Shown here: piece by piece, positions 2,961-63,259 of the stretch | Layout of the letters: every line of letters begins with the position of its first letter | Position numbering within the stretch: position 1 is the first letter of the stretch | From: an uncultured virus (IMG/VR IMGVR_UViG_3300007734_000750) | Taxonomy: Duplodnaviria; Heunggongvirae; Uroviricota; Caudoviricetes | DNA: 64,000 nucleotides | Strand: one strand, 5' to 3' | IMG/VR virus record: IMGVR_UViG_3300007734_000750 | The notes under the pieces: generated by a model | Database searches by the model: none | Told to the model about the DNA's origin: nothing | Seen by the model: only the letters and a program-made list of their open reading frames with translations | Made by a program: the position numbers and the translations under genes

Positions 2961-3695
2961 TTATTTTTTTAAAATTTCTTTAGAGTAGAACTCGTCGAAC
3001 CCAACCATCATTTCTGTCATAGATTTGTTTGTCTCTAATCCAACAATGTTATCAATTAAACCAAATGCTTTCGCCTCATCTGAGTTGAACCATTTGTCAT
3101 TTCTTGATGACTCATACATCTCGTCAAATGTTTTCCCACAATTTTCCGCCAAGATTTTGAATAACATATAGTTATATTTCTCTGCCTCCAATTGATTGAT
3201 ACGAGTATCCTGAACATTTCCTTGTGTTCCGTGAGACACCATATGTGTCATAATTTTTGAGAAGATTAATGAACTTCTTTTTCCTTTTGCTCCTGATGAT
3301 ACCAATACTGAACCCATTGACGCGCACATCCCAACATTTAATGTTGCAACATCCGGTTTGATGTAGTTCATCGTATCTCTGATTCCAAGACCTGATAATA
3401 CACTTCCACCCGGAGTGTCAAGATACATACTGATATCTTTTTTATCTGTGGTTTCCAAGAAGATAAGTTGAGCTTGGATGATAGATGCCATCTGACTCTC
3501 AACCGGTCCGGAAACCCAAATAATACGGTCCATCATAAGTCGGGAGAAAATATCAAGTTGAGTTGCTCTCATCTCTCTTTCTTCCAAAATGTATGGAGTA
3601 ACACTCTCAATGTGTTTTTGGTAGTAATCCAAGTTAAGACCTGAGATACCTCTGTCGCTCATCGCGAACTTTTTAAAATCGTTTCCGTAATTCAT
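2961..3695 (-). CDS. clpP: ATP-dependent Clp protease proteolytic subunit
   Basis: DIFSRLMMDRII, TPGGSV, GMCASMG (catalytic Ser), IMTH. Confidence 0.95.
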   Translation of the reverse strand: MNYGNDFKKFAMSDRGISGLNLDYYQKHIESVTPYILEEREMRATQLDIFSRLMMDRIIWVSGPVESQMASIIQAQLIFLETTDKKDISMYLDTPGGSVLSGLGIRDTMNYIKPDVATLNVGMCASMGSVLVSSGAKGKRSSLIFSKIMTHMVSHGTQGNVQDTRINQLEAEKYNYMLFKILAENCGKTFDEMYESSRNDKWFNSDEAKAFGLIDNIVGLETNKSMTEMMVGFDEFYSKEILKK

Positions 3696-7469: not shown

Positions 7470-7648
7470 TTTGGAGAAATAGTCATAGAGAACCATTTAT
7501 TGATGTGGATTTTAGTCAATTTATGGAATCGTATTATAGTTACGAGGAGGCTAAGGCGGCTGCCGAAGAAATTGTTAAAAACGAAAACGAGGGTGACCCA
7601 AGTCCTTGGTATTTTGATTATAAAATTTATGAAGAATCAAATGGATAA
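7457..7648 (+). CDS. hypothetical protein
   Basis: overlapping ORF in operon. Confidence 0.6.
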   Translation: MYIIVWRNSHREPFIDVDFSQFMESYYSYEEAKAAAEEIVKNENEGDPSPWYFDYKIYEESNG

Positions 7649-8243
7649 ATTAGAAAAACTTTGTATCAAGTGGTTAAATGAGAATTTTAACCCGATGGAA
7701 CCATTCTTTATGAAAGAATACCCTGATTATGTTTTTCATATGAAAGATGGGAATTGTATCTTGCAACACAATAAAAAAAATGGGTATGTTTATGTGAGTT
7801 ATAGAGAAATTTGGAAGTTTTTTGAATCCTATTTTAGTATGACTAATCAACAAATTAAGGACATTACAAAGATATGGGTGGAGGAACACTACAAAGTGGG
7901 GATAACCACAACTATGATTTATGGGGATATACCATTCATAACGGTGGAGGAACACTACAAAGTGGGGGTGACATCAACAGCCAATTCGTTACTAACAGTA
8001 TTCAACAAGGTGGAGGAACACTACAAAGTGGGGGTGACATCAACTGGTTATTTTAGCTTCTGGAAAGATTGTTTGGTGGAGGAACACTACAAAATGGGGG
8101 TGACATCAACCTATAAGTCCTCTCCAATTTGGGATTTCGTGGTAGATGAACAATATCAAGAAATTCAAACCACCAATAACCAATTAGAATTTTACGATGA
8201 AAAGGATGTTGAAGAGTTATACGAACAAAATACAAATGAATAG
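7641..8243 (+). CDS. hypothetical protein whose C-terminal half is encoded by a repeat-spacer array
   Basis: ATG 7641; N-domain paralogous to ORF 28862; then VEEHYKxGxTxT + 10 variable aa with a 22-aa period. Confidence 0.8.
   Translation: MDKLEKLCIKWLNENFNPMEPFFMKEYPDYVFHMKDGNCILQHNKKNGYVYVSYREIWKFFESYFSMTNQQIKDITKIWVEEHYKVGITTTMIYGDIPFITVEEHYKVGVTSTANSLLTVFNKVEEHYKVGVTSTGYFSFWKDCLVEEHYKMGVTSTYKSSPIWDFVVDEQYQEIQTTNNQLEFYDEKDVEELYEQNTNE
7877..8176. CRISPR. CRISPR-like mini-array: four 36-bp repeats plus one degenerate, four 30-bp spacers, no cas genes in window
   Basis: GGTGGAGGAACACTACAAAGTGGGGGTGACATCAAC at 7943 and 8009; 1 mismatch at 8075; 4 mismatches at 7877; degenerate at 8141; spacers unrelated to each other. 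Confidence 0.7.
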
Positions 8244-8412
8244 AAAATTAGATATTAGTTGGAAATCTTATTCAAAAACCTTACCTTTGTCCAAAGAAAT
8301 CTATTTGGAAATATTTGGAGAACCAAAGACCCACGCAGAATGGGCGGATAGTTTTAATAAAATAGGGAGAATAAACAGATTAATAATAAAACACACAGAT
8401 GACATACGATGA
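8236..8412 (+). CDS. hypothetical protein
   Basis: ATG overlapping the upstream stop. Confidence 0.5.
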   Translation: MNRKLDISWKSYSKTLPLSKEIYLEIFGEPKTHAEWADSFNKIGRINRLIIKHTDDIR

Positions 8413-8629
8413 ATTAGAAATTTGGCAATCAGTCCAATACAGAATGGATGAAGAAGGGTTTGACTATTGCTTTGAAAGTTATTCCAATTGGGATGAAATC
8501 AAAGACGAGGAGTTCCACAGATTAAGATTGGGGTTCTTACAACATATGAAAGAACTTCGTGAATACATTGACAAAAAAGTTGAAGAAGGTGAAAACCTTG
8601 AATTAGATGGAGAATTAGAAGATGAATAA
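8399..8629 (+). CDS. hypothetical acidic protein
   Basis: ORF coupled to thyA. Confidence 0.7.
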   Translation: MTYDELEIWQSVQYRMDEEGFDYCFESYSNWDEIKDEEFHRLRLGFLQHMKELREYIDKKVEEGENLELDGELEDE

Positions 8630-9905
8630 CATAGACAAACAATACCAAGCACTATTACAAGACATCCTTGATAATGGTGTAGAGAAAAAAGACAGAACCG
8701 GAACGGGAACAATCTCTGTGTTCGGAAGACAAATCAGACATAAGATGTCAGAAGGATTCCCATTACTTACAACTAAAAAGATACCGTGGAAATCAATCGT
8801 CACAGAACTTCTTTGGTTCCTTCAGGGGAATACAAATATCAAATGGTTGGTTGATAATGGATGTAACATTTGGAATGGTGATGCTTATAAGAACTATTTG
8901 GATAAAAAAATGTTCTCATCAAGTTTTGAAGCTTTAGTAGAAAATGATGAAGATATTCTACTAACTCAAGAAGAGTTTATAGAGAAAATAAAAACTGATT
9001 TAAATTTCGCAAGTGGAAATGGAGAGTTAGGCCCAATCTATGGTAAACAATGGAGAAGTTGGGAAGGATATGAACACGGAATGGTATTAGGTGCAGGATT
9101 AAGTAAAGAACAACCAATAGACCAAATCCAAAATCTAATCAACGACCTTAAAACAAATCCAGACTCAAGACGATTAATGGTTAATGCTTGGAATGTTGGT
9201 GAGTTGGATGCGATGGTCTTGCCACCTTGTCATTATGGGTTTCAAGTTTATACAAGAGAGTTGAGTGATGAAGAGGTTATTGAATATCACTATAAACATA
9301 ACCAACCAAATGATAAGTGGAAAAAAGATGGTGATTCTTATTATTATTTTGTAGAAAAGTCAAATATGTGGTTTGAACATTCTGGTTCCGATATTTTATT
9401 TGGTATGAGACCAAATTGTCCTAAAAGAGCAATCTCTTTAATGTGGAATCAACGTTCAGTAGATACATTCTTAGGCTTACCATTCAACATTGCTTCTTAT
9501 GGATTGTTATTGGAGATAATTGCTAAAGAAGTTAATATGGTTCCTGATGAATTGATTGGAAATCTTGGTGATGTTCATTTATATTCAAATCATATTGAAC
9601 AAGCAAAAGAACAGATTGGAAGAAAATACACTCACGAAGAAAGAACAGAATTGTTAAAACAAGCGATGGGTGAAGAAAGATATAATAAAGCGGTTGATGA
9701 ATTAATGCCGTTTGGTGGTGGATTAAGTGAATATTATGATTCATATAAAATTCCTTATACAACAAGAGAACCTTATAAGTTACCGAGATTGAAATTCTCG
9801 CCTTGTCCAATAACCGGAATTGATATGGAGTATCAATCAATAGCACAATTCCAAATTGAGAACTATGAATCACATCCAACAATTAAAGCACCTTTAAGTA
9901 ATTAA
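8622..9905 (+). CDS. thyA: thymidylate synthase with insertions
   Basis: DRTGTGT, ELLWFL, LGPIYGKQWR, SRR, LPPCH, QRSVDTFLGLPFN, HLYSNH. Confidence 0.96.
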   Translation: MNNIDKQYQALLQDILDNGVEKKDRTGTGTISVFGRQIRHKMSEGFPLLTTKKIPWKSIVTELLWFLQGNTNIKWLVDNGCNIWNGDAYKNYLDKKMFSSSFEALVENDEDILLTQEEFIEKIKTDLNFASGNGELGPIYGKQWRSWEGYEHGMVLGAGLSKEQPIDQIQNLINDLKTNPDSRRLMVNAWNVGELDAMVLPPCHYGFQVYTRELSDEEVIEYHYKHNQPNDKWKKDGDSYYYFVEKSNMWFEHSGSDILFGMRPNCPKRAISLMWNQRSVDTFLGLPFNIASYGLLLEIIAKEVNMVPDELIGNLGDVHLYSNHIEQAKEQIGRKYTHEERTELLKQAMGEERYNKAVDELMPFGGGLSEYYDSYKIPYTTREPYKLPRLKFSPCPITGIDMEYQSIAQFQIENYESHPTIKAPLSN

Positions 9906-28120: not shown

Positions 28121-28813
28121 TTAAGATAGTTCCTTAGACATATTGATTGCCGCTTGTAGACATTCCTCAAAATTCTCAATTACTTTTCTACCTCTTTTTG
28201 TGTAGGGCATCACATAACCAATTCCTTCTTCAGCCATCCATCTTTTATCTAAGTCATCACCTTCATCGTATGACTTATTATATTTATTAAACCAACCGGC
28301 CCATTCCCACTCTTCGTAGTCCTCTTCTTTTGGTTTGTAAGATGGGTCAAATAATCTATCACCAATTTTAAATGTTTGACCACCTCTGTGAGTGTATCCG
28401 TGATATCCAATAAGATTTCCTTCATCATCGTATCTTTCGGCAACCCCGTGAGGGTATTGTTCACATACTTTCATATTGTTTTCGTAATACCACCAACCTC
28501 TTTCAACATCACCAACATATTCACCATCTTTTGTTAAGAATGAATTTGGTAAATGTTGTTCTTTTTTTAAATCGGGGGTGTCACCAAAATAGTGAGAACC
28601 AATTTTTCCGTTGGTGTGTCTATCAATAAGATATTTACATTGGGGGTTGATAATCCATCCTGCTGATGTTCTAATCGGTGTGATTCTTGAAACCAATTTG
28701 GTAAATCCTAAATCAAGATGAACTTTATTCAATTTTGATTTTCCGGTGTAATGTGGGAATTTTTCAAACTTTAATCTAAGTTTTCCGATGTAAGGTGTGG
28801 TATTTTTTATCAT
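28121..28813 (-). CDS. hypothetical protein
   Basis: 230-aa ORF; GYTHRG...FKIGD. Confidence 0.75.
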   Translation of the reverse strand: MIKNTTPYIGKLRLKFEKFPHYTGKSKLNKVHLDLGFTKLVSRITPIRTSAGWIINPQCKYLIDRHTNGKIGSHYFGDTPDLKKEQHLPNSFLTKDGEYVGDVERGWWYYENNMKVCEQYPHGVAERYDDEGNLIGYHGYTHRGGQTFKIGDRLFDPSYKPKEEDYEEWEWAGWFNKYNKSYDEGDDLDKRWMAEEGIGYVMPYTKRGRKVIENFEECLQAAINMSKELS

Positions 28814-28861: not shown

Positions 28862-29194
28862 ATGAAAATAATAATAACAGAGAACAAATTAGAAAGAATC
28901 TCAATCAAATGGTTGAATGATAACTATAGTGATTTAGAGTTTATTCATACTGAAAAGGCTCCATTACTTAATTTTTATATGCAAAATAAAAATGTGATTT
29001 TTGACTATAGGATAAAAACTAAAGAAATTTTTATTACTATGGATATTTGGAAATTTTTTAAAGATTACTTTAGTATGGAATATAAAGAAATATCTAAACT
29101 ATTAATAAAATGGGTTGAAGATAATTATAACATAAATGTTAAAAAAATTAAACCGGCTGAAAACACAAGGTGGAGAGTAATAAGACCTTATTAA
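28862..29194 (+). CDS. MKIIITE-family protein, paralog of 7641 without the array
   Basis: IKWLNDNY...IWKFFKDYFSM...IKWVEDNY aligns with 7641. Confidence 0.8.
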   Translation: MKIIITENKLERISIKWLNDNYSDLEFIHTEKAPLLNFYMQNKNVIFDYRIKTKEIFITMDIWKFFKDYFSMEYKEISKLLIKWVEDNYNINVKKIKPAENTRWRVIRPY

Positions 29195-29786: not shown

Positions 29787-31655
29787 ATGGGAAAAATTAT
29801 TGGAATTGACTTAGGAACAACTAACTCGTGTGTCTCTGTAATGGAGGGTAACGAACCTGTTGTAATAGCAAATTCAGAAGGTAAAAGAACAACACCTTCA
29901 ATCATCGGTTTCATCAACGAAGGAGAAAGAAAAGTTGGTGACCCGGCAAAAAGACAGGCGGTAACCAATCCGACTAAAACAATATCATCAATTAAACGAT
30001 TTATGGGTTCTACCTATGACGAGAGTAAAAACGAAATTGGGAAAGTTCCTTACTCAGTTGTAAACGAAGGTTCTCAACCAAGAGTTCAAATTGACGATAG
30101 AAAATACTCACCACAAGAATTATCGGCAATTATCTTACAAAAGATGAAACAAACTGCTGAAGATTATTTGGGTGAAACAGTAACGGACGCGGTAATCACC
30201 GTTCCAGCTTACTTTAACGATGCCCAACGTCAGGCTACAAAAGAGGCGGGTGAAATTGCCGGATTAAATGTTCGTCGTATTATCAACGAACCAACCGCGG
30301 CGGCTCTTGCGTATGGTCTTGACAAAAAAGGGGATAGTAAAATTGTTGTGTTTGACTGCGGAGGTGGAACTCACGACGTATCTGTTCTTGACTTAGGTGG
30401 TGGTGTATTTGAGGTATTATCTACCGATGGAGACACACACTTAGGAGGGGACGACTTTGACAGAGTCATTATTGATTACTTGGTTGAGGAATTCAAGAAC
30501 GATAATGGTGGTTTAGACATCTCAAAAGACGCTATGGCATTACAAAGGTTAAGAGAAGGGGCTGAGAAAGCGAAGGTTGAATTATCTTCATCTCCTCAGA
30601 CAGAAATCAACTTACCTTATTTAAGTGCTGATGCGACCGGACCAAAACACTTGGTAAAAACATTAACAAGAGCGAAGTTTGAACAACTTTCTGCTGAGTT
30701 AATCAAAAGAACAATTGAACCTTGTAAAACGGCATTGAAAAACGCGAAACTTAAAGTTTCCGATATTGATGAGGTTATCCTTGTTGGTGGAACAACAAGA
30801 ATCCCGGCAATACAAGAGGCGGTTAAGAAGTTCTTTGGTAAAGAACCATCAAAAGGTGTTAATCCGGATGAAGTAGTTGCGTTAGGAGCGGCTATTCAAG
30901 GAGGTGTATTGGCTGGTGATGTGAAAGATGTGTTGTTATTAGACGTAACACCACTTTCATTAGGTATTGAAACAATGGGTGGTATTTTAACACGACTTAT
31001 TGAGGCAAATACTACAATCCCAACCAAAAAGTCACAAGTTTTCTCAACTGCTGTTGATAATCAACCTTCTGTGGAGATTCACGTCTTACAAGGGGAGAGA
31101 CCAATGGCAAAAGACAACAGAACGATGGGTAGATTCCATTTAGATGGTTTACCACCGGCAATGAGAGGAACTCCGAAAATACAAGTAACTTTTGATATTG
31201 ATGCAAATGGTATCATCAATGTTTCTGCGGTTGATGAAGCAACAAACAAAACACAATCAATTAGAATTGAGGGTTCAACGGGACTATCTCAAGAAGATAT
31301 TGAAAGAATGAAGGCTGAAGCTGAAGAAAACGCTGAAGCGGACAAAAAAGTTAAAGAGGATGTGGATACATTAAACTCTGCTGATAACCTGATATTCCAA
31401 ACAGGTAAATCTTTGACTGATTTAGAGGATAAGATTTCTGAAGAACAAAAAACAGAAATAACAACTCTTCTTGATACCTTGAAAGAATCTCATTCTAATA
31501 AAGATGTGGAAAATGTTAAAACGATTATGGAAGAACTTACCCAAAAGTTCCAAACCATCACACAGGAATTATACAATAGTGTAAATGAGAGTGAGACACC
31601 GGAATCAGATATAAATGCTTCGGATGTAGAGTTTGAAGAGGTTAAACCTGAATAA
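29787..31655 (+). CDS. dnaK: Hsp70 chaperone DnaK
   Basis: [34 protein letters not shown]. Confidence 0.98.
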
Positions 31656-32907: not shown

Positions 32908-33534
32908 ATGAAAAACATACACATATTACCAACAGATAAACCAAGTAGGTTATTTTATATAAAAAAAATTCTTGTACTTGATAGAAAAAAGAAAATATAT
33001 TCAGAGAGTTATAAAAACTTACACGAATATAAAAACCAAAACATCTACATCACTTCTGATGAAAAAATTAAAGAAGGAAATTATACTTATCATAGAGTTT
33101 TTGGAGTAGGTAAAATAACTAATGTTAATGGAAAAAAATGTTTTGTGACAATAAAACTAAGCTCTACAGATGGTTCAATTACAACCCCTTGGAAAAGAAA
33201 TATTCCTGATATTAAAAAAATCATTTTAACAACAGACCCTCAACTTATTGCAGATGGTGTACAAGCTATTGATGATGAGTTTTTAGAAAGGTTTGTGAAA
33301 AATCCAAGTTGTGAGTTTGCTCATTTAGGTTTTAAATCTATTATTGGAGATTCAGAAACAAAAAGAACTTGGAAAATAATCATTCCAAAAGAAGAACAAA
33401 AAGAAGTTGAAAACGATTGGGAAGAAATCTTATTTGATTTTATAGATTTTTACCCGTGTCAATTACCTGACGAATTATTTGAATGGTTGGAGGAAAATTA
33501 CGAAATACCAAAGAAAAAAGATGGAAAAGATTAA
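32908..33534 (+). CDS. hypothetical protein, paralog of 32039
   Basis: same conserved blocks as 32039. Confidence 0.78.
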   Translation: MKNIHILPTDKPSRLFYIKKILVLDRKKKIYSESYKNLHEYKNQNIYITSDEKIKEGNYTYHRVFGVGKITNVNGKKCFVTIKLSSTDGSITTPWKRNIPDIKKIILTTDPQLIADGVQAIDDEFLERFVKNPSCEFAHLGFKSIIGDSETKRTWKIIIPKEEQKEVENDWEEILFDFIDFYPCQLPDELFEWLEENYEIPKKKDGKD

Positions 33535-34021
33535 AGTTATATTTTTGGACATAGATGGAGTTCTTAATGTTTACTCCCACGACCACGATGAGTTTGGTAG
33601 TCAATTTATGCCACAATTCGTCAATAACCTTAAACGAGTTATTGAAGAAACCGGAGCCAAGATTGTGATATCATCAACTTGGAGATATGGGGGATTACAG
33701 AGGATGAAAGATTTATGGGAAAAGAGAAACTTACCCGGTGAGGTAATTGATATCACACCGGATTGTAATGACCTTTTCAACGAAGGTTCATTTAAGTGGT
33801 TGGACCAAATTGAAAGAGGTCACGAAGTTGAGTATTGGTTGGACGAACATCCCGAAGTGGAACAATATGTTATCTTTGACGACGATAATGATTTCTTACC
33901 CCACCAACGAGGTAATTTTGTTAGAACGGCGAACAATATCAATCATCCGGACTCATTAGATATCGGATATGGATTAACAAATGAGTGTGCAAACAAAGCA
34001 ATAAGAATATTAAAATCATAA
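33521..34021 (+). CDS. HAD-family protein (Swiss-Army-Knife RNA-repair-like)
   Basis: FLDIDGVLN, ISSTWR, RGHEV..WL, YVIFDD. Confidence 0.8.
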   Translation: MEKIKVIFLDIDGVLNVYSHDHDEFGSQFMPQFVNNLKRVIEETGAKIVISSTWRYGGLQRMKDLWEKRNLPGEVIDITPDCNDLFNEGSFKWLDQIERGHEVEYWLDEHPEVEQYVIFDDDNDFLPHQRGNFVRTANNINHPDSLDIGYGLTNECANKAIRILKS

Positions 34022-36179: not shown

Positions 36180-36773
36180 ATGGAAAAAGACAAAAAAAAA
36201 TCAATTTTATTTTTGGATTTAGACGGAGTTCTATGTTTAAGTAATAATTGGGGTGGACGAGCCAAAAAATGGAAGAAGTATAAAAAACTTAATCCTGACG
36301 CTGTCAGCGACACAACCGCACCGGTTGAGGTAAGATTTGACGATTTAGATAAGAAAGCCGTTAAGGTATTAAATGAGGTATTGAAAGAAACCGGAGCGGA
36401 AATAGTTGTTTCCTCTGATTGGAGATTATTTGCAACATTAGAAGAACTTGGTGAATATTTTTTATCAAAAGGAATCTCAAAAGCCCCAATCGCATTCACC
36501 AAACGATACATAGGTTGTGATAAACCTGATGAATTTGAATGGACAAGAAGAACAATGTATGAACAACAAAGATGTATAGAAGTTAGACAATATCTAACGG
36601 ACCATCCGGATGTGACTCATTGGGTTTGTGTTGATGATTTGGAACTAGGTGAAACAGATACTCACGATAGAGAACAAAAGTGGGGATTATCCAACTTTGT
36701 TCACACACCAAGAGAAAATGAAGGAATCAAACAATCTGGTGTTAAAGAAAAATTATTACAATACCTTACATAA
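36180..36773 (+). CDS. HAD-family protein (Swiss-Army-Knife RNA-repair-like)
   Basis: FLDLDGVL, VSSDWR, WVCVDD. Confidence 0.8.
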   Translation: MEKDKKKSILFLDLDGVLCLSNNWGGRAKKWKKYKKLNPDAVSDTTAPVEVRFDDLDKKAVKVLNEVLKETGAEIVVSSDWRLFATLEELGEYFLSKGISKAPIAFTKRYIGCDKPDEFEWTRRTMYEQQRCIEVRQYLTDHPDVTHWVCVDDLELGETDTHDREQKWGLSNFVHTPRENEGIKQSGVKEKLLQYLT

Positions 36774-58486: not shown

Positions 58487-58957
58487 ATGGAAAATAATAT
58501 GAAACCCCCCTGTAGAATATATCTTGATGATGTAAGAACTCCGACTGGCGATAATTGGATTGTTGTAAGAAATTACGATGAATTTGTTGTGGAAGTTAAT
58601 AAAATTGGGTTGGAGAATATTGATATAATTTCTTTGGACCACGATTTAGGTGATACTGCAATGAAAGAATATTTTGATAATGTTTCACCAAATTATACTT
58701 TGGATTACAGTAATATTCACGAAAAAACCGGTTATGATGCTATTAAATTTTTGGTATCATTATTTCACAATACAAATGAAGAGAGATTTAATATGACAAG
58801 AAGTGAGAGAAAGGCTAATAAATTTGTGTTCCCAATTGTGTATGTTCATTCTGCCAATCCAATCGGGGCGGGAAATATAATGGGTTTTTGTAACAATTTT
58901 TTAATGAACGAGGGTCAAGCGCAAACTTGTGTAAGAGTCCGAATACCACACGTATAA
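58487..58957 (+). CDS. cyclic-phosphate-processing receiver-like domain protein
   Basis: IYLDDVRTP, ISLDHDLG, TGYD, VHSANPIG. Confidence 0.75.
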   Translation: MENNMKPPCRIYLDDVRTPTGDNWIVVRNYDEFVVEVNKIGLENIDIISLDHDLGDTAMKEYFDNVSPNYTLDYSNIHEKTGYDAIKFLVSLFHNTNEERFNMTRSERKANKFVFPIVYVHSANPIGAGNIMGFCNNFLMNEGQAQTCVRVRIPHV

Positions 58958-59466
58958 TGAATATATTTTTCTTAGATGAGAATCCGACTTTGTCGGCAAA
59001 ATACCACGTAGATAAACACGTAGTTAAAATGATTTTGGAAACGGCTCAGTTATTGTGTTCGGTTCATCACACGACCCCCCAAGTTGGCACCCAAGTTACC
59101 CCCCAAGTACCCTACAAGTTGTCACATAAAAATCATCCTTGTGCGGTGTGGGCTCGTCAGAGTTTATCAAATTATTTGTATTTGTGTGAGTTGGGATTGG
59201 AATTGGGTAAAGAATATACCCACAGGTATGGTAAGAAACATAAATCAATTGAGGTGATTGAATGGTGTATTGTAAATAGACCTAACATTCCGGACATTGG
59301 TTTTACCACTCCGGCGAGAGCGATGCCGGATGAGTTTAAGGTAGATTCTGTTGTGGAATCTTATAGAAATTATTATATGGGGGCTAAAATTAATTTAGCT
59401 TCTTGGAAAAACAGAGAAAAACCTTTTTGGTTTGGAAAAAAAGAATTAGATTTGCAGTATGATTAA
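58957..59466 (+). CDS. pyrimidine-dimer DNA glycosylase-like protein
   Basis: MNIFFLD, DKHVVKMILETAQLL, HKNHPC..W, EYTHRYGKKH. Confidence 0.75.
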   Translation: MNIFFLDENPTLSAKYHVDKHVVKMILETAQLLCSVHHTTPQVGTQVTPQVPYKLSHKNHPCAVWARQSLSNYLYLCELGLELGKEYTHRYGKKHKSIEVIEWCIVNRPNIPDIGFTTPARAMPDEFKVDSVVESYRNYYMGAKINLASWKNREKPFWFGKKELDLQYD

Positions 59467-60109
59467 GATAGATAAAGATAGAAAGGTATGGATTATATCC
59501 GACACTCACTTTGGACATAAGAATATATGTAGAGGAGTGACCGAATGGCGTCTTCCTGATGGAAGTGTTCCAATATCTCAAACAAGAGATTTTAATACAA
59601 TAGAACAGATGAACGAAACAATCGTCAATAACATTAATAGTGTTGTTGGGCAAGACGATGTGTTAATTCATCTTGGGGATTTTAGCTTCGGGGGTTTTGA
59701 AAACATCCAAAAGTTCAGAGATAGAATTTTGTGTAAAGAGATTCACCTTATATTGGGAAATCACGATACAAGCATAGAAAAAAATAGAGAGAATGTACAA
59801 GAATTATTTACAAGTGTTAGTCACTACACAAAATTGATGTATAAATTTAAAACATTTGTTTTATTTCACTATCCTGTAACGAGTTGGGATGGATTAAATA
59901 AAGGACATATCCAACTTCACGGGCACGTACATCTCCCAACAAATTTAAGGTTTGGTAAAGGTAAAAAAATGGACGTTGGTATGGATGGTCACCCAACATT
60001 TGGCGTGTATGATATTGATGATATTATACGAATAATGGATAAACGTGAGATTGCGTCGGATATGTTATTTGACCACCATACGGATGAATTAAAGGGTGTT
60101 GTTGGGTAA
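59459..60109 (+). CDS. calcineurin-like phosphoesterase
   Basis: SDTHFGH, HLGD, GNHD, HYP, HGHVH. Confidence 0.9.
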   Translation: MIKIDKDRKVWIISDTHFGHKNICRGVTEWRLPDGSVPISQTRDFNTIEQMNETIVNNINSVVGQDDVLIHLGDFSFGGFENIQKFRDRILCKEIHLILGNHDTSIEKNRENVQELFTSVSHYTKLMYKFKTFVLFHYPVTSWDGLNKGHIQLHGHVHLPTNLRFGKGKKMDVGMDGHPTFGVYDIDDIIRIMDKREIASDMLFDHHTDELKGVVG

Positions 60110-60718
60110 AAGGGGGATTTTATCCCTCTTTTCTAAATTGTCCCACCACCATAATGGTTGTAAATTAGTATAATGACAAAGTTTTTTTAATTCTTCATCA
60201 TTTTTTGCGGAAGATAGGGGGGTAATATGGTCAATATGCCAACCAAATTGTCCGTGATTTTCCCAAGACATTTCACCGGTAAATTTATTTTCTAAATGTA
60301 ATTTTAATTCTATTGGAGAACAACCAATTAAATCAAAAGTTTTTTCTTTTTTTGTTTTTAAAATTTTATGTATTTTTGACCTATAAAGAGTTTTTAATTT
60401 AAATACTGGGTCATTTTTTTTTCTTTCACGAAGAGCTTTATTTAATCTATCTTTATTTTTTCTAACCCACTCTAATTTTCTTAAACTAATTCTTTCTTTG
60501 TTTTCAGTCGCATATTTGGAGGTTCTTTTTGATATTTTTGTTTTATTATCCTCTCTATATTTTTTATCGTATTCTTTTCTAATATCTTTTCTATTGTTTT
60601 GATATAATTTAACACAAATTTTACAATTAGATACTTTACCTAATTTACCCTTACTTGAGTTATGAAATTCACATAATTCTTTTTCAATTTTACACTTAGT
60701 ACAAATCTTTGATTCCAT
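60089..60718 (-). CDS. HNH/EndoVII-like homing endonuclease
   Basis: N-terminal CxxC pairs; WHIDHITPLSS...LCHYTNLQPLW..DN. Confidence 0.85.
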   Translation of the reverse strand: MESKICTKCKIEKELCEFHNSSKGKLGKVSNCKICVKLYQNNRKDIRKEYDKKYREDNKTKISKRTSKYATENKERISLRKLEWVRKNKDRLNKALRERKKNDPVFKLKTLYRSKIHKILKTKKEKTFDLIGCSPIELKLHLENKFTGEMSWENHGQFGWHIDHITPLSSAKNDEELKKLCHYTNLQPLWWWDNLEKRDKIPLLPNNTL

Positions 60719-60851
60719 AATATTTTCTTAATAATTTTTCAATTAATTTTGATTTATTGGTTAAATCATCTTCCATTTTTTTGTTAATTTCCGGAGTTAA
60801 AGTTATGGATACTTTAACACGCTTGTCTTCTTCTTTTAATGTTGGTCTCAT
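60696..60851 (-). CDS. 51-aa ribbon-helix-helix-like protein
   Basis: own translation ...KRVKVSITLTPEINKKM...NKSKLIEKLLRKYY; TATTTAT upstream. Confidence 0.6.
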   Translation of the reverse strand: MRPTLKEEDKRVKVSITLTPEINKKMEDDLTNKSKLIEKLLRKYYGIKDLY

Positions 60852-60926
60852 ATATATAAATATACGGAAAAAATGTAAAATACTATTTTTATTAAAAAAA
60901 AATGTTTATCTTTGTAAAAAAATAAT

Positions 60927-61190
60927 ATGTTAAACACAAGAGTAGAAGACAACCACTTTAATGAAGATGATTCATTAATATCGTCACGGATTATAATTGA
61001 GGTTCCATTATCTCACGAAATGTTACAAGATTGTTATTCGTATGCAGCAATGGATGCACCATCTGAAATTAAAAGAATGTTGATGGAATTTCTTGGTGAT
61101 ACAATTGATGAAATCATTTTAGGTAAAAGACCTGATAATGTTGATGAACAATGGTTAAGAAGAAAACTAATAGAAGTAAAAGTAATATGA
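60927..61190 (+). CDS. hypothetical protein
   Basis: follows TATCTTTG. Confidence 0.65.
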   Translation: MLNTRVEDNHFNEDDSLISSRIIIEVPLSHEMLQDCYSYAAMDAPSEIKRMLMEFLGDTIDEIILGKRPDNVDEQWLRRKLIEVKVI

Positions 61191-61477
61191 GAATTAAACA
61201 AACAAAAAAAGATTTATTTGTGTGTTCCTGTCATAACACGGAACATCAAATGGTTGTCCTATATGATGAGGACGATATTGATGGTGTAAGATTTCCAATG
61301 GTTTATATTCACACACATTTGGTTAAACGCCCATTTTGGCAAAGAGTTGGTTATGGATTGAAATATATTTTTGGACATCAATCAAGATACGGAGCGTTTG
61401 ATGAGTTCATCATTAATCCTGATGACGTTGAAGGTATTGAAAAAATTGTTAAATATTTAAAAGAATGTGAATTATGA
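61187..61477 (+). CDS. conserved phage hypothetical protein
   Basis: CSCH..EH, FWQRV...KYIFG. Confidence 0.7.
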   Translation: MRIKQTKKDLFVCSCHNTEHQMVVLYDEDDIDGVRFPMVYIHTHLVKRPFWQRVGYGLKYIFGHQSRYGAFDEFIINPDDVEGIEKIVKYLKECEL

Positions 61478-61869
61478 AAGAGTTATTTTTATTGAGAGGA
61501 TTACCGGGAAGTGGTAAATCAACATTGGCAAAAATGTTAGTTGGTGATAAAGATTATTGTCACAAAGAGGCGGATATGTATTTTGTCGATAGGGATGGTA
61601 ACTACAAATTTGATGTTACATCATTAAGAGATGCTCACGCTTGGTGTCAAGAAGAAGTTGAGTTCCTTATGAAATACGAACATAAAGTTGTAGTATCAAA
61701 TACATTCACCCAAGAGTGGGAAATGACACCTTATTTTGAATTAGCGGAAAAATATGGTTACAGAGTTCATTCACTTATTGTAGAGAATAGACACGGAGGT
61801 GTTAATGTACACGGGGTTCCGGAAGATAAATTGGAAATAATGAAAAATCGTTTTGAAACGAAACTTTAA
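61474..61869 (+). CDS. P-loop kinase (AAA_33/polynucleotide kinase-like)
   Basis: RGLPGSGKST, EAD.YF, VSNTF, NVHGVP. Confidence 0.88.
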   Translation: MKELFLLRGLPGSGKSTLAKMLVGDKDYCHKEADMYFVDRDGNYKFDVTSLRDAHAWCQEEVEFLMKYEHKVVVSNTFTQEWEMTPYFELAEKYGYRVHSLIVENRHGGVNVHGVPEDKLEIMKNRFETKL

Positions 61870-61902
61870 TTCCATATCTTTGTCCCCTAAAATTATTTAA
61901 CT

Positions 61903-62232
61903 ATGAGCGGAGGAGCATTTGATTACAACCAATATAAGATTGGTTACATCGCAGACCAAATAGAGCAAACAATTATTAAGAATGGTCTTGAGAAAACACA
62001 AGAAGAACTTAAAAACGAAAGTTGGAGAGACGATTCTTGGTATGAAAAATACCCTGAGGACTTCTTCCATTACAAATACCCGGATGAGGTTATTGAGAAG
62101 ATGAAAGAGGCGGTTAAAGCTCTTCATATTGCTCAAGAATACGCTCAACGAGTGGATTGGTTATTATCAGGTGATGATGGTGAGGAATCATTCTTAAGTA
62201 GATTGGAAGAAAATTTGAAAAAAATAGAATAA
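61903..62232 (+). CDS. conserved phage hypothetical protein
   Basis: MSGGAFDY...VDWLLSGDDGEE. Confidence 0.75.
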   Translation: MSGGAFDYNQYKIGYIADQIEQTIIKNGLEKTQEELKNESWRDDSWYEKYPEDFFHYKYPDEVIEKMKEAVKALHIAQEYAQRVDWLLSGDDGEESFLSRLEENLKKIE

Positions 62233-62233
62233 G

Positions 62234-63259
62234 ATGTTAGAAAAACTAAACAAATATTACGAAGACGGGTTACTTTACAAACAAGTACATCCATACCTCC
62301 CATTAACCATATGGAACTATTCAGAAAAGTGCCAATATGAAAATCTTTGGGACGAAACTCTTTTGATGTGTAGAGGTTTAGTTACCGACCATACCGGAGA
62401 CATTGTTGCAAAACCTTTTGATAAATTCTTCAACATAGAGGAAGGAAAATTTGAACCAACTGAAAAGTTTGAGGTTTATGAAAAAATGGATGGCTCACTT
62501 TTAATAGTTTTTTGGTATGAGGGTCAATGGGTGGTTGCCACTCGTGGGTCATTTGGTTCAGACCAAGCAATTAAGGGTAGAGAATTACTTAAAAAATATA
62601 ACACCGACATAATGTTCAGACATCAGACTTTCTGCTTTGAAGTTCTCTATAAAAATAATCGTATAGTGGTAGATTACGGTGATTATGAAGGGTTAGTCCT
62701 ATTAGGAACCTTTGATAAGAATGGTAAAGAATATGATGTGGAAATGTGGAGAGAATACGGGTTTGATGTGGTTAAAAAATACGATGGTATCAATGACTAC
62801 AAACAACTAAAAGAAATGGTTAAAAACGACCAAGAGGGGTTCGTAGTGAAGTTCTCCAATGGGGATAGAGTCAAAGTTAAAGGTGCCGAGTATCTTCGTC
62901 TTCACAAAATAATGACCAACGTCACTACAACCGGAGTTTGGGAGTATTTAAAAAATGGTGAAGATGTTTTGGAATTATTAAAAGATGTTCCGGACGAATT
63001 TTATAAAAAAATTCAAAACTATGTTAAAGAATTAAGATATGGTTATTTTCAAATATCTGAAGATGCGGGTAAAAAGTTTGACGGTAAAATGTATGGTAAA
63101 TACAACGACAAAGAACCTATTGAAGATAGAAAAGAGTTTGCTGAGTGGGTATTAACCCAACCTAAACATATGTCAGGGATTCTATTCAGAATGTTTGATA
63201 AAAAAGATTACTCTGAAATCATATGGAACCTAATCAGACCGGAATTTAAAAAACTATAA
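62234..63259 (+). CDS. T4 Rnl1-like RNA ligase
   Basis: CRGLV, KFFN, EKMDGS (motif I), ATRGSF, FE, EGFVV, VKVK..EY. Confidence 0.9.
   Translation: MLEKLNKYYEDGLLYKQVHPYLPLTIWNYSEKCQYENLWDETLLMCRGLVTDHTGDIVAKPFDKFFNIEEGKFEPTEKFEVYEKMDGSLLIVFWYEGQWVVATRGSFGSDQAIKGRELLKKYNTDIMFRHQTFCFEVLYKNNRIVVDYGDYEGLVLLGTFDKNGKEYDVEMWREYGFDVVKKYDGINDYKQLKEMVKNDQEGFVVKFSNGDRVKVKGAEYLRLHKIMTNVTTTGVWEYLKNGEDVLELLKDVPDEFYKKIQNYVKELRYGYFQISEDAGKKFDGKMYGKYNDKEPIEDRKEFAEWVLTQPKHMSGILFRMFDKKDYSEIIWNLIRPEFKKL

Follow-up and report, generated by a model that had tools for sequence, protein, structure and literature searches.

Can a CRISPR-type repeat-spacer array lie within a translated phage gene, and if so, what would have built it there and kept it readable? 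This question is raised by a small gene, 7641..8243, in the window, which is a stretch of 64,000 nucleotides from an uncultured virus of the Caudoviricetes, a large freshwater phage (IMG/VR record IMGVR_UViG_3300007734_000750). Cas-less viral arrays and phage-borne mimics of CRISPR repeats are already known, and none was found described inside a translated gene. Mini-CRISPR arrays carried by viruses without cas genes are the subject of one report (Medvedeva et al., 2019, PMC6858448). In Bacteroidota, type VI-B arrays are loaded in trans by the Cas1-Cas2 proteins of type II-C systems, as stated in another (Hoikkala et al., 2021, PMC8092290), and a third deals with phage-borne RNA anti-CRISPRs, or solitary repeat units (Camara-Wilpert et al., 2023, PMC10651486). 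We rate at about an even chance the explanation that the locus is a CRISPR-type array serviced by the host that started from the 3' end of the gene itself and has remained translatable. The observations set out below suggest a bacterial immune-memory mechanism writing into a phage gene.

Architecture of the array

Four 36-nt repeats follow one another in the gene at successive distances of 66, 66 and 66 nt (Table 1). Their length falls within the 23-47 nt of CRISPR repeats in general. The second and the third are identical, the fourth differs from them by one base and the first by four. A repeat search recovered 3 copies at no more than 3 mismatches, against 0 expected from 100 dinucleotide shuffles. 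The four 30-nt spacers in the window are mutually unrelated when compared by eye, and the repeat positions and the exact 30-bp spacer length given in the initial annotation, which had been made from the sequence without database searches, are confirmed together with the 66-nt period. Tandem Repeats Finder was silent on the array region, which is to be expected because the repetition covers only part of each unit.

Two degenerate units had also been proposed, at 8141 and 8207. Both are decayed repeats, the former identical to repeat 2 at 19/36 positions and the latter reading VEELY before running into a stop, and both are supported by the homologs, in which a decayed repeat and an old spacer, closed by a terminal repeat, make up the conserved tail. 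At the other end of the array, the variant of repeat 1 and the first spacer are the same in the window and at locus L045.

Table 1. Features of the array gene, its downstream neighbour and its paralog (positions in the window).
Feature	Position	Strand	Remarks
Whole gene P0001, 200 aa	7641..8243	+	N-terminal domain and array-encoded tail; ORF and translation
Folded N-terminal domain, codons 1-79	7641..7876	+	AlphaFold2 pLDDT
Repeat 1, variant ending ...GGGGATAACCACAAC	7877..7912	+	begins at third base of Trp79 codon
Spacer 1, peptide MIYGDIPFIT	7913..7942	+	also in L045, P0026, P0059, P0061, P0089
Repeat 2	7943..7978	+	0 mismatches
Spacer 2	7979..8008	+	unique among collected arrays
Repeat 3	8009..8044	+	0 mismatches
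Spacer 3	8045..8074	+	unique among collected arrays
Repeat 4	8075..8110	+	1 mismatch
Spacer 4	8111..8140	+	unique among collected arrays
Decayed repeat 5 (VDEQYQEIQTTN)	8141..8176	+	19/36 to repeat 2 (hand count); equivalent unit conserved in homologs
Old trailer-end spacer, NQLEFYDEKD	8177..8206	+	conserved across many homologs
Terminal decayed repeat, VEELYEQNTNE then stop	8207..8243	+	leader-facing part of repeat only
Downstream small gene (MNRKLDISWKSY..., 58 aa)	8236..8412	+	ATG overlaps array gene's end
Array-less paralog P0002, 110 aa	28862..29194	+	single WVE..Y motif copy

The gene body and its array-less relatives

The N-terminal domain is modelled by AlphaFold2 with a pLDDT of 94-97 over residues 1-80 and of 82 over residues 81-90. 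P0001 has no Pfam family, and its only match among the PHROGs is weak (phrog_23906, E=0.007). Searches of solved folds with the confidently modelled N-terminal domain returned no usable match either, the best Foldseek hit having an E-value of 0.09 and the best VIA hit a Z of 4.0.

The repeat derives from the native C-terminal motif of this protein family, as had been proposed from the window; the family consensus, ...ITKxWVEExYKLxV, and the array-less paralogs both support this. The paralog at 28862 indeed carries the motif once and has no array. It shares 34% identity with the array gene over residues 2-88 and ends in WVEDNYNINV.... A second array-less paralog, in the related genome G002, holds a single proto-repeat that is identical to the array repeat at 25/36 positions. 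Of 29 distinct loci, 16 were scored as having a conserved downstream ORF that overlaps the array gene's end, L029 among these 16 being a frameshift artefact, and in three further loci an overlap of ~14 nt with the downstream ORF was recognised by eye.

Arrays across related phages

P0001 has 253 homologs at E<=0.01, and the array gene is present at 44 fetched loci of related phages without cas genes, three of them complete (308-322 kb). The lengths of the homologous proteins rise in steps of 22 residues. Among the homologs listed, 120/120 close ones are at least 134 aa long, the array-less form measuring ~100-110 aa, and 121/121 parsed homologs contain at least one repeat unit. The nucleotide set consisted of 31 distinct arrays from the 44 loci and the window. 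Its spacers measure 30 nt (n=73), 27 nt (n=3), 33 nt (n=3) or 29 nt (n=1) and form 62 clusters that cannot be aligned with one another, and the longest arrays hold 7 spacers. The one 29-nt spacer, at L029, breaks the frame and occupies the newest position; in real Flavobacteriaceae arrays, 29 nt is the common minor spacer length.

The protein-level set comprised 107 distinct arrays, 95 of which have at least two spacers. A unique spacer stands at the gene-proximal end in 45/95 arrays and at the distal end in 24/95 (Fisher p=0.002), so that the polarised spacer turnover envisaged in the initial annotation is seen in the homologs. The order of spacers is the same in 73/76 co-occurring pairs, trailer-end blocks such as S1-S4-S2-S19 recur beneath differing proximal spacers, and the distal units of the arrays are decayed. 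This polarity is of moderate strength and does not hold for the window's own array, in which the shared spacer is the proximal one.

The edges of the units are defined by nucleotides and do not fall between codons. G is the first base of each of the 61 internal repeats, though the junction codon to which this G belongs encodes 12 different residues, and conservation falls at the unit edges, from 1.00 to 0.36 on one side and from 0.92 to 0.43 on the other. Repeat positions 1-3 are kept in 61/61 internal repeats, and at most positions conservation is 90% or higher. At synonymous sites, repeat 1 (3/9 codons varying) is not clearly less variable than the gene body (26/58).

Reading frame and tail peptides

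The 66-bp unit amounts to 22 codons, and the ORF at 7641-8243 reads VEEHYK[V/M]G[V/I]T[T/S]T followed by 10 variable residues in each unit. In-frame stops occur in 1/56 spacers, compared with 17-30/56 in the other five frames; the depletion of stop codons in this frame, for which the initial annotation had proposed a test in homologs, is thus found there. A stop is present in one array and a frameshift in another. Loci that lack an overlapping downstream gene, L018, L024 and L034 among them, keep the frame as well.

The tail is predicted to be disordered, residues 111-187 having a pLDDT <50. The composition of the spacer peptides is near that of a random stop-free translation, and they show no motif tied to position: at inner positions, no single residue is found in more than 23/161 peptides. 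Cys is rarer than expected (1.3% of residues as opposed to 3.0%), and Gly, Asp, Phe and Trp are over-represented (chi-square 122, 19 df). The spacer peptides resemble arbitrary DNA that has been translated.

Comparison with bacterial CRISPR repeats and search for cas genes

Reference arrays were extracted from Flavobacteriaceae genomes, and those lying next to Cas13b came from G039, G263 and G718. These three Cas13b-adjacent arrays combine 36-nt repeats with 30-nt spacers, as the phage array does. The 36/30 geometry had been ascribed to types II-C and VI-B, and it is indeed the same in the Cas2-linked (II-C) and the Cas13b-linked (VI-B) arrays of Flavobacteriaceae. The phage repeat agrees with the three Bacteroidota Cas13b-adjacent repeats at 14-20/36 positions in the sense of the gene and at 17-24/36 in antisense. 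Identities in this range of 14-24/36 were reached by 0-2473 of 100,000 shuffles, and the antisense values of 22-24/36 by 0/100,000. The resemblance of repeat 1 to Cas13b repeats, suggested in the initial annotation, finds support in a match of 20/36 that 2/100,000 shuffles attained. The Cas13b-adjacent repeats share 25-30/36 among themselves, compared with at most 24/36 for the phage repeat. The best Cas13b likeness is antisense to the gene, and this would place the variable end opposite to where it lies in canonical VI-B arrays.

With the 36-nt II-C class of Flavobacteriaceae the phage repeat shares 10-16/36 positions, and with the G401 repeat 12-18/36. Base 36 of the phage repeat abuts the variable end and its reverse complement starts with GTTGT; only this GTTGT start is common to the reverse complement and the II-C repeats. 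In Flavobacterium columnare, both II-C and VI-B arrays have 36-bp repeats with GTTGT at the leader-distal end (PMC8092290). A real Cas13b array likewise closes with a truncated terminal repeat, of which just the first 20 nt are left. A hairpin of the Cas13b type is absent from the phage repeat RNA, which has a weak fold or none on both strands, and an Rfam search at a permissive E-value gave no CRISPR-DR family, only chance rows of snoRNAs and sRNAs. No inverted copy of the repeat (anti-repeat) at 24/36 or better was found in the three complete related genomes or in the window; a tracrRNA might be encoded by the host.

No cas genes were found among the 89 ORFs of the window, nor Cas1, Cas2 or Cas13b in five related phage records, three of them complete. 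In the related phages, the Cas9 model matched only the HNH domains of ~170-aa proteins. The Cas13a model NF038188 had no match. The cas1 and cas2 genes that the initial annotation had thought worth seeking in the phage genome were found neither among the window ORFs nor in the five related records. An exact 20-nt core of the repeat, searched in a one-genome-per-species collection, gave two single hits and no bacterial array, one hit lying in an unrelated gene of Polaribacter and the other being a single copy in a Clostridiaceae MAG. When the array was compared by BLAST with 401 Flavobacteriaceae genomes, only short chance hits came up, the best of them in an unrelated gene. The suggestion that host Cas13b or Cas9 uses the array is not borne out by these searches, which yielded no phage cas genes, no bacterial array with the repeat and no Cas13b-type hairpin. 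The phages probably have bacterial hosts among the Bacteroidota, not archaea.

Origin of the spacers

In ~1 Mb of related genomes, protospacers were found for 1/62 spacers. Spacer 1 of locus L042 matches a virion-sized gene of 2314 aa at 28/30 positions in G002, 26/30 in G003 and 25/30 in G001, while shuffled spacers searched against the related genomes reached 24/30 at best (186 shuffles). This spacer copies the other phage's gene in a different reading frame. Its protospacer site is present in 15 IMG/VR contigs, again with a best match of 28/30, and the F. columnare PAM NNNNNTAAA is absent on either side of the L042 protospacer, which is a single case.

The four spacers of the window matched nothing in the phage database or in the three related genomes; in the phage-database BLAST, the window array gave three chance rows (E 0.9-3) and the L042 array no match. 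For four further spacers, one exact word of 24-27 nt each was searched in IMG/VR, where two returned nothing and two returned their own arrays only. The initial annotation had proposed a search with the window's four spacers; these went unmatched, and the one protospacer obtained belongs to a relative's spacer.

Origin and maintenance of the array

Under the favoured explanation, a CRISPR-type array serviced by the host, the 36-bp unit, which encodes W|VEEHYK.GVT.T, would be native to the 3' end of a small phage gene, and this 3' end would have acted as a pseudo leader-repeat junction. The host's Cas1-Cas2 integrase would have repeatedly added 30 bp of foreign DNA beside the gene body, each insertion duplicating the 36-bp unit. 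The integrase would be supplied by the host because the phages have none of their own, and the loading may be compared with that of the F. columnare VI-B arrays, which are filled in trans by a type II-C adaptation module (PMC8092290). The collected arrays show a turnover in which the far-end units decay and recombination between repeats deletes and shuffles spacers. Phages would persist only if an insert leaves the frame open, which may be the cause of the observed stop depletion. Translation probably has to continue to the natural stop for the sake of the gene itself and, in most relatives, of a downstream gene whose start overlaps it. The transcript, in sense or antisense, may provide a host effector with Cas13b-like repeats and phage-carried guides, which could be directed against competing related phages, or it may serve as a sponge for the effector.

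The exact geometry, the out-of-phase edges, the population pattern, the truncated terminal repeat, the protospacer, the Cas13b likeness and the parallels with the F. columnare arrays all support a CRISPR-type array, and we count the 29-nt spacer of L029 and the arbitrary-DNA-like tail on the same side. On the opposite side stand the lack of cas genes, of a host array with this repeat and of a hairpin, a Cas13b likeness below that of the Cas13b repeats to one another, the few protospacers, the moderate polarity, and the synonymous variation of repeat 1. The depletion of in-frame stops is counted against a plain CRISPR array because it is not a property of ordinary arrays.

One alternative keeps the integrase and drops the benefit. 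Host Cas1-Cas2 would mistake the 3' end of the gene for a leader-repeat junction and leave an off-target adaptation scar of no use to the phage, selection merely removing the inserts that break the frame. Off-target creation of arrays by Cas1-Cas2 has reportedly been observed in so-called neo-CRISPR work, as integration at pseudo-repeats in laboratory E. coli genomes. A scar would also agree with a repeat that is native coding sequence, with the single proto-repeats of P0002 and the G002 paralog, with the missing cognate host repeat and hairpin, and with the scarcity of spacers that match anything. We nevertheless consider it unlikely: every close homolog listed exceeds the array-less length and every parsed one holds a repeat unit, the arrays reach 7 spacers, and although synonymous changes would let a harmful target escape, the first three positions are kept in all internal repeats. 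Quite unlikely in our judgement, and the boldest of the readings, is that a clade of large freshwater phages has turned the 3' end of the gene into a landing pad for host adaptation, the captured DNA being translated and yielding either diversity of the protein tail or additional repeats that soak up a Cas13b-like effector.

Selection might instead act on the protein, with spacer capture or some other cassette mechanism varying a displayed tail, for instance one that evades or decoys a host factor. Such diversification could account for the near absence of in-frame stops relative to the other frames, for spacer lengths that are nearly all multiples of 3, for a frame kept without an overlapping downstream gene, and for the depletion of Cys and enrichment of Gly, Asp, Phe and Trp. 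We hold it to be very unlikely, however, as the peptides have no positional motif, the tail is predicted to be disordered, a premature stop would leave the folded domain intact, and one array has a stop and another a frameshift. Repeat finders often label protein tandem-repeat genes as CRISPR, and the locus could be such a gene, an ordinary tandem repeat with a 22-residue unit of which one half is conserved through homogenisation by gene conversion and the other evolves fast. The position of the array inside an ORF, the conserved family motif that the repeat encodes and the lack of cas genes and of a host repeat would all fit. This explanation is disfavoured, and we regard it as the least probable of those considered here: the spacers are unrelated and not diverged copies, the unit edges, marked by an invariant G, do not coincide with codon boundaries, one spacer equals 28/30 nt of another phage's gene in a different frame, unique units favour one end while order is conserved, and a 29-nt unit exists.

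Relation to known systems

The phage array resembles the mini-CRISPR arrays (PMC6858448) in being a repeat-spacer array on a cas-less virus, presumably dependent on host Cas proteins, and in having at least one spacer that matches a gene of closely related viruses. It differs from them in lying inside a translated gene, in frame and with up to 7 spacers, in having a repeat that is the gene's own coding sequence and matches no known host array, and in belonging to a phage of bacteria, probably Bacteroidota, and not of archaea. With type VI-B arrays it shares the 36-nt repeat, the 30-nt spacer, the lack of adaptation genes of its own and a terminal repeat reduced to its leader-facing part; its repeat agrees with the three Cas13b-adjacent ones at 14-24/36 positions. 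Unlike them, it has no cas13b nearby or anywhere in the phage, and its repeat has no hairpin.

Camara-Wilpert et al. (PMC10651486) describe RNA anti-CRISPRs as small RNAs that encode no protein and have a promoter of their own. They are likewise phage-borne repeat mimics without cas genes, and a role as a sponge is conceivable here too; the present array, in contrast, has multiple repeats and spacers inside a translated ORF, and no known host repeat matches it. In the survey of these authors, predicted ORFs were masked and candidates were obtained for all types except type VI (PMC10651486), so that arrays inside genes would be missed. A full-text literature search turned up no paper describing a phage CRISPR-type array that is in frame and translated. 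In neo-CRISPR integration, a non-CRISPR sequence is similarly said to become a duplicated 'repeat' once the integrase has inserted a spacer. That work reportedly concerned laboratory E. coli, whereas the array described here would be inherited and expanding in a gene of a natural phage lineage.

If the favoured explanation is true, the locus would show, in nature, both the birth of a new array on a pseudo-repeat and the heritable editing of a virus genome by host adaptation machinery. It would also offer a testable system for what Cas1-Cas2 needs at a leader-repeat junction and for the exploitation of Cas13b-type systems by phages. If the landing-pad reading is true, a virus would be receiving heritable, expressed sequence from the immune-memory machinery of bacteria, and even a neutral scar would be a rare record of natural off-target adaptation.

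Occurrence in public sequencing runs

In public sequencing runs, contigs of RNA libraries cover neighbouring genes only. Contigs of relatives in a third run span the flanks of the array but not most spacers, and two DNA runs yielded contigs that agree with the window at every base of the array.

A repeat–spacer array within an open reading frame

The array gene of the window encodes a product of 200 residues and carries, from position 7877 onwards, four 36-nt repeats at a spacing of exactly 66 nt, with 0–4 mismatches among copies; the number of repeat matches expected by chance was 0 (100 shuffles). Its four 30-nt spacers bear no relation to one another, and two decayed units end the array, with the stop codon within the last one. 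The initial annotation had placed a repeat–spacer array inside this coding sequence, and the spacing, the unrelated spacers and the shuffles confirmed it as written.

About 253 proteins match the gene product at E ≤ 0.01, and among the 120 matches listed the lengths cluster at 134, 156, 178, 200, 222 and 244 residues, i.e., in 22-residue steps. In homologs, VEEHYK[MV]GVT[TS]T repeats alternate with 10-residue inserts, and identical inserts turn up in different homologous proteins. A wider search over cluster representatives gave 399 relatives at E ≤ 0.001, of which the weaker matches among those listed are mostly ~90–150 aa and align over the N-terminal domain alone. The family consensus ends in ...WVEExYKLxV, which identifies the repeat as the family's native C-terminal motif. 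The array-less paralog in the window (P0002) contains the motif once. Furthermore, the complete related phage genome G002 encodes a second family member (locus L008, 4150–4260), without an array, ~0.7 kb downstream of its array gene. This protein ends in ...LWVEEHYNLSVTTITSTSIYY, its single proto-repeat matches the repeat at 25/36 positions, and it may offer a picture of the pre-array state.

Relatives were located by scanning with the protein as well as with a 20-nt core of the repeat (8 viral, 13 viral and 25 metagenome loci, two metagenome loci being without an array); three of the relatives are complete genomes of 308–322 kb. Together with the window, these loci hold 112 repeat instances in 31 distinct arrays, with spacers of 30 nt (73), 27 nt (3), 33 nt (3) and 29 nt (1).

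Spacer turnover and protospacers

From 116 parsed homologs, 107 distinct arrays were derived, 95 of them with at least two spacers. Unique spacers occupied the gene-proximal position in 45/95 arrays vs. the distal position in 24/95 (Fisher p = 0.002), and in the 68 arrays with at least three spacers the unique fraction was 28/68 for the first, 43/138 for middle and 12/68 for the last spacers. The order was the same in 73 of the 76 spacer pairs co-occurring in at least two arrays. Decay has affected the distal repeats, and of the terminal one only the first ~15 bases are left; in a real Cas13b array, too, the terminal repeat retains only its first 20 bases. The window array is atypical, as its proximal spacer, accompanied by a distinct repeat-1 variant, also occurs in a relative's locus (L045) and in four proteins, whereas none of the three distal ones is shared, which suggests recombination between arrays.

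When 62 distinct 30-nt spacers were compared with the three complete related genomes and the window (~1 Mb), spacer 1 of the relative's locus L042 matched a 2314-residue gene at 28/30 positions in G002, 26/30 in G003 and 25/30 in G001. The remaining spacers reached at most 24/30 in this ~1 Mb, and 186 shuffled controls had the same ceiling. The protospacer site is kept in 15 IMG/VR contigs, the best match being 28/30 and none 30/30. The spacer lies in the sense orientation of its source gene and is read in a different frame in the array. Spacer 3 of L042 encodes, in a non-gene frame, VLSGGGAKG, which resembles the glycine-rich motif of patatin-like lipases; this spacer, too, may have been taken from a coding sequence. 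All repeats of L042 are identical save one, and the sole spacer with a protospacer is found there as well.

Comparison with known CRISPR types

In a study of Flavobacterium columnare, the repeats are 36 bp long in the type II-C as well as the VI-B array, with GTTGT leader-distal and base 36 adjoining the leader, and the VI-B array, without cas1/cas2, receives its spacers in trans from the II-C module (Hoikkala et al., 2021, PMC8092290). Reverse-complemented, the phage repeat starts with GTTGT and has base 36 at the variable end, matching the layout in F. columnare. A guide RNA could come from either strand: a gene-sense transcript of the phage array shows canonical VI-B polarity, and the closer likeness to Cas13b repeats lies on the antisense strand. 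An antisense guide from spacer 1 of L042 would be complementary to the target mRNA.

Cas2 was detected in 49/201 Flavobacteriaceae genomes, and arrays in 25 of the 30 Cas2 loci fetched; eight of these 25 have a 36-nt GTTGTGG... repeat with 29–30-nt spacers, the others mostly 46-nt repeats. A motif scan of 401 genomes gave three 36/30 arrays, two adjoining Cas13b (PADLOC E 1e-207 to 1e-259) and one adjoining Cas2, Cas1 and Cas9. A phylum-wide sample, in which 2/401 genomes had Cas13b, supplied the third Cas13b array. The phage repeat agrees with the three Cas13b repeats at 14–20/36 positions in gene sense and 17–24/36 in antisense, with the 36-nt II-C class at only 10–16/36; identity among the Cas13b repeats themselves is 25–30/36. 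Its agreement with the repeat of bacterial genome G718 (22–24/36) was equalled by 0/100,000 composition-preserving shuffles, and that with G039 in gene sense (20/36) by 2/100,000. The G039 repeat is what we take to be the published Bergeyella zoohelcum Cas13b repeat.

Five related phage records yielded no Cas1, Cas2 or Cas13b, and the 89 window ORFs scanned included no cas gene. Cas9-model matches in related phages were rejected as HNH domains of ~170-aa proteins, below the family cut-off. Searches for an anti-repeat and for a bacterial array with the phage repeat found neither; the repeat forms no conserved hairpin and matches no Rfam family.

Origin and possible role of the array

One hypothesis, to which we give an even chance, is host Cas1–Cas2 integration from which the phage also profits in some way, through guides that act on competing phages or through a sponge effect on a Cas13b-like effector. 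The pattern is consistent with a host Cas1–Cas2 that integrates spacers at a pseudo leader–repeat junction, namely the gene's native 3′ end; these would then be inherited, decay and recombine, and selection would hold the 22-codon units open. A protein repeat unconnected with CRISPR, for which the native motif might speak, is the least probable reading. The repeat starts at the third base of a codon, and its own last base is base two of the final Thr codon; G occupies its first position in 61/61 internal repeats, where the junction codon encodes 12 different residues, and column conservation falls at the unit edges from 1.00 to 0.36 on one side and from 0.92 to 0.43 on the other. The repeat unit is set by nucleotides, not codons, because the invariant G and the edge drops are not expected of a protein-level repeat. 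The first spacer base (unit position 37) is T in 23, A in 26, C in 12 and G in 0 of 61 cases; the missing G could reflect an integration preference or ACG codon avoidance.

An off-target scar without function appears unlikely to us. In-frame stops occur in 1/56 distinct 30-nt spacers vs. 17–30/56 in the other five frames. Two exceptions to the open frame are instructive. L042 has a stop in spacer 5, and the overlapping downstream gene is absent there. At another relative's locus, L029, a 29-nt spacer at the newest (first) position shifts the frame; it could be a homopolymer assembly error, and 29 nt is the usual minor spacer length in real Flavobacteriaceae arrays. These are the only frame-breaking units seen, and their two contigs belong to a single metagenome. 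The array gene's end in the window is overlapped by the ATG of the downstream gene; an overlapping downstream ORF was scored in 16/29 distinct loci, including L029 as a frameshift artefact, and an overlap of ~14 nt was seen by eye in three further loci. Translational coupling could account for part of the frame selection, but is not the whole cause, because loci without overlap stay open too. Protein diversification as the selected function, with which an open frame would agree, is improbable in our judgement; the spacer-encoded peptides have a composition near that of random stop-free translation and show no positional motif, and AlphaFold2 pLDDT is <50 for residues 111–187 vs. 82–97 for residues 1–90.

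Judging by excerpts of both reports, the closest known kinds to the phage array are virus-borne mini-arrays (Medvedeva et al., 2019, PMC6858448) and RNA anti-CRISPRs, in the survey of which ORFs were masked and, in the excerpt, no type VI candidates appear (Camara-Wilpert et al., 2023, PMC10651486). No description of an in-frame translated array on a phage was found in text searches of the literature.

Genomic context

The window is AT-rich phage DNA (G+C ~32%) with 74/91 ORFs on one strand, and it encodes homing endonucleases besides ClpP, thymidylate synthase, Hsp70, a Tad6-like protein and an RNA-repair set. A T9SS sorting domain among its proteins suggests a Bacteroidota host. The closest named phages are Flavobacterium phages, the match being confined to thyA.

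Features of the window
Feature	Position (strand)	Details
ClpP protease	2964–3695	E 6e-52
Array gene (P0001)	7641–8243 (+)	
Thymidylate synthase	8622–9905	427 aa
Tad6-like ORF	28124–28813 (-)	Pfam Tad6, E 9e-12
Array-less paralog (P0002)	28862–29194 (+)	110 aa
Hsp70/DnaK	29787–31652	E 4e-255
HAD_SAK_2 gene	33521–34018	
HAD_SAK_2 gene	36180–36770	
RNA-repair-type gene cluster	58487–63256	cREC_REC, two metallophosphatases, AAA_33 kinase-like protein, T4-type RNA ligase

Tad6 is a type I Thoeris inhibitor family, and the array-less paralog thus adjoins a likely anti-defence gene. The RNA-repair kit could, speculatively, serve the repair of damage by RNA-cutting defences. Two stretches of the thymidylate synthase match the 266-position Pfam model, and this split match seems to reflect a large insertion.
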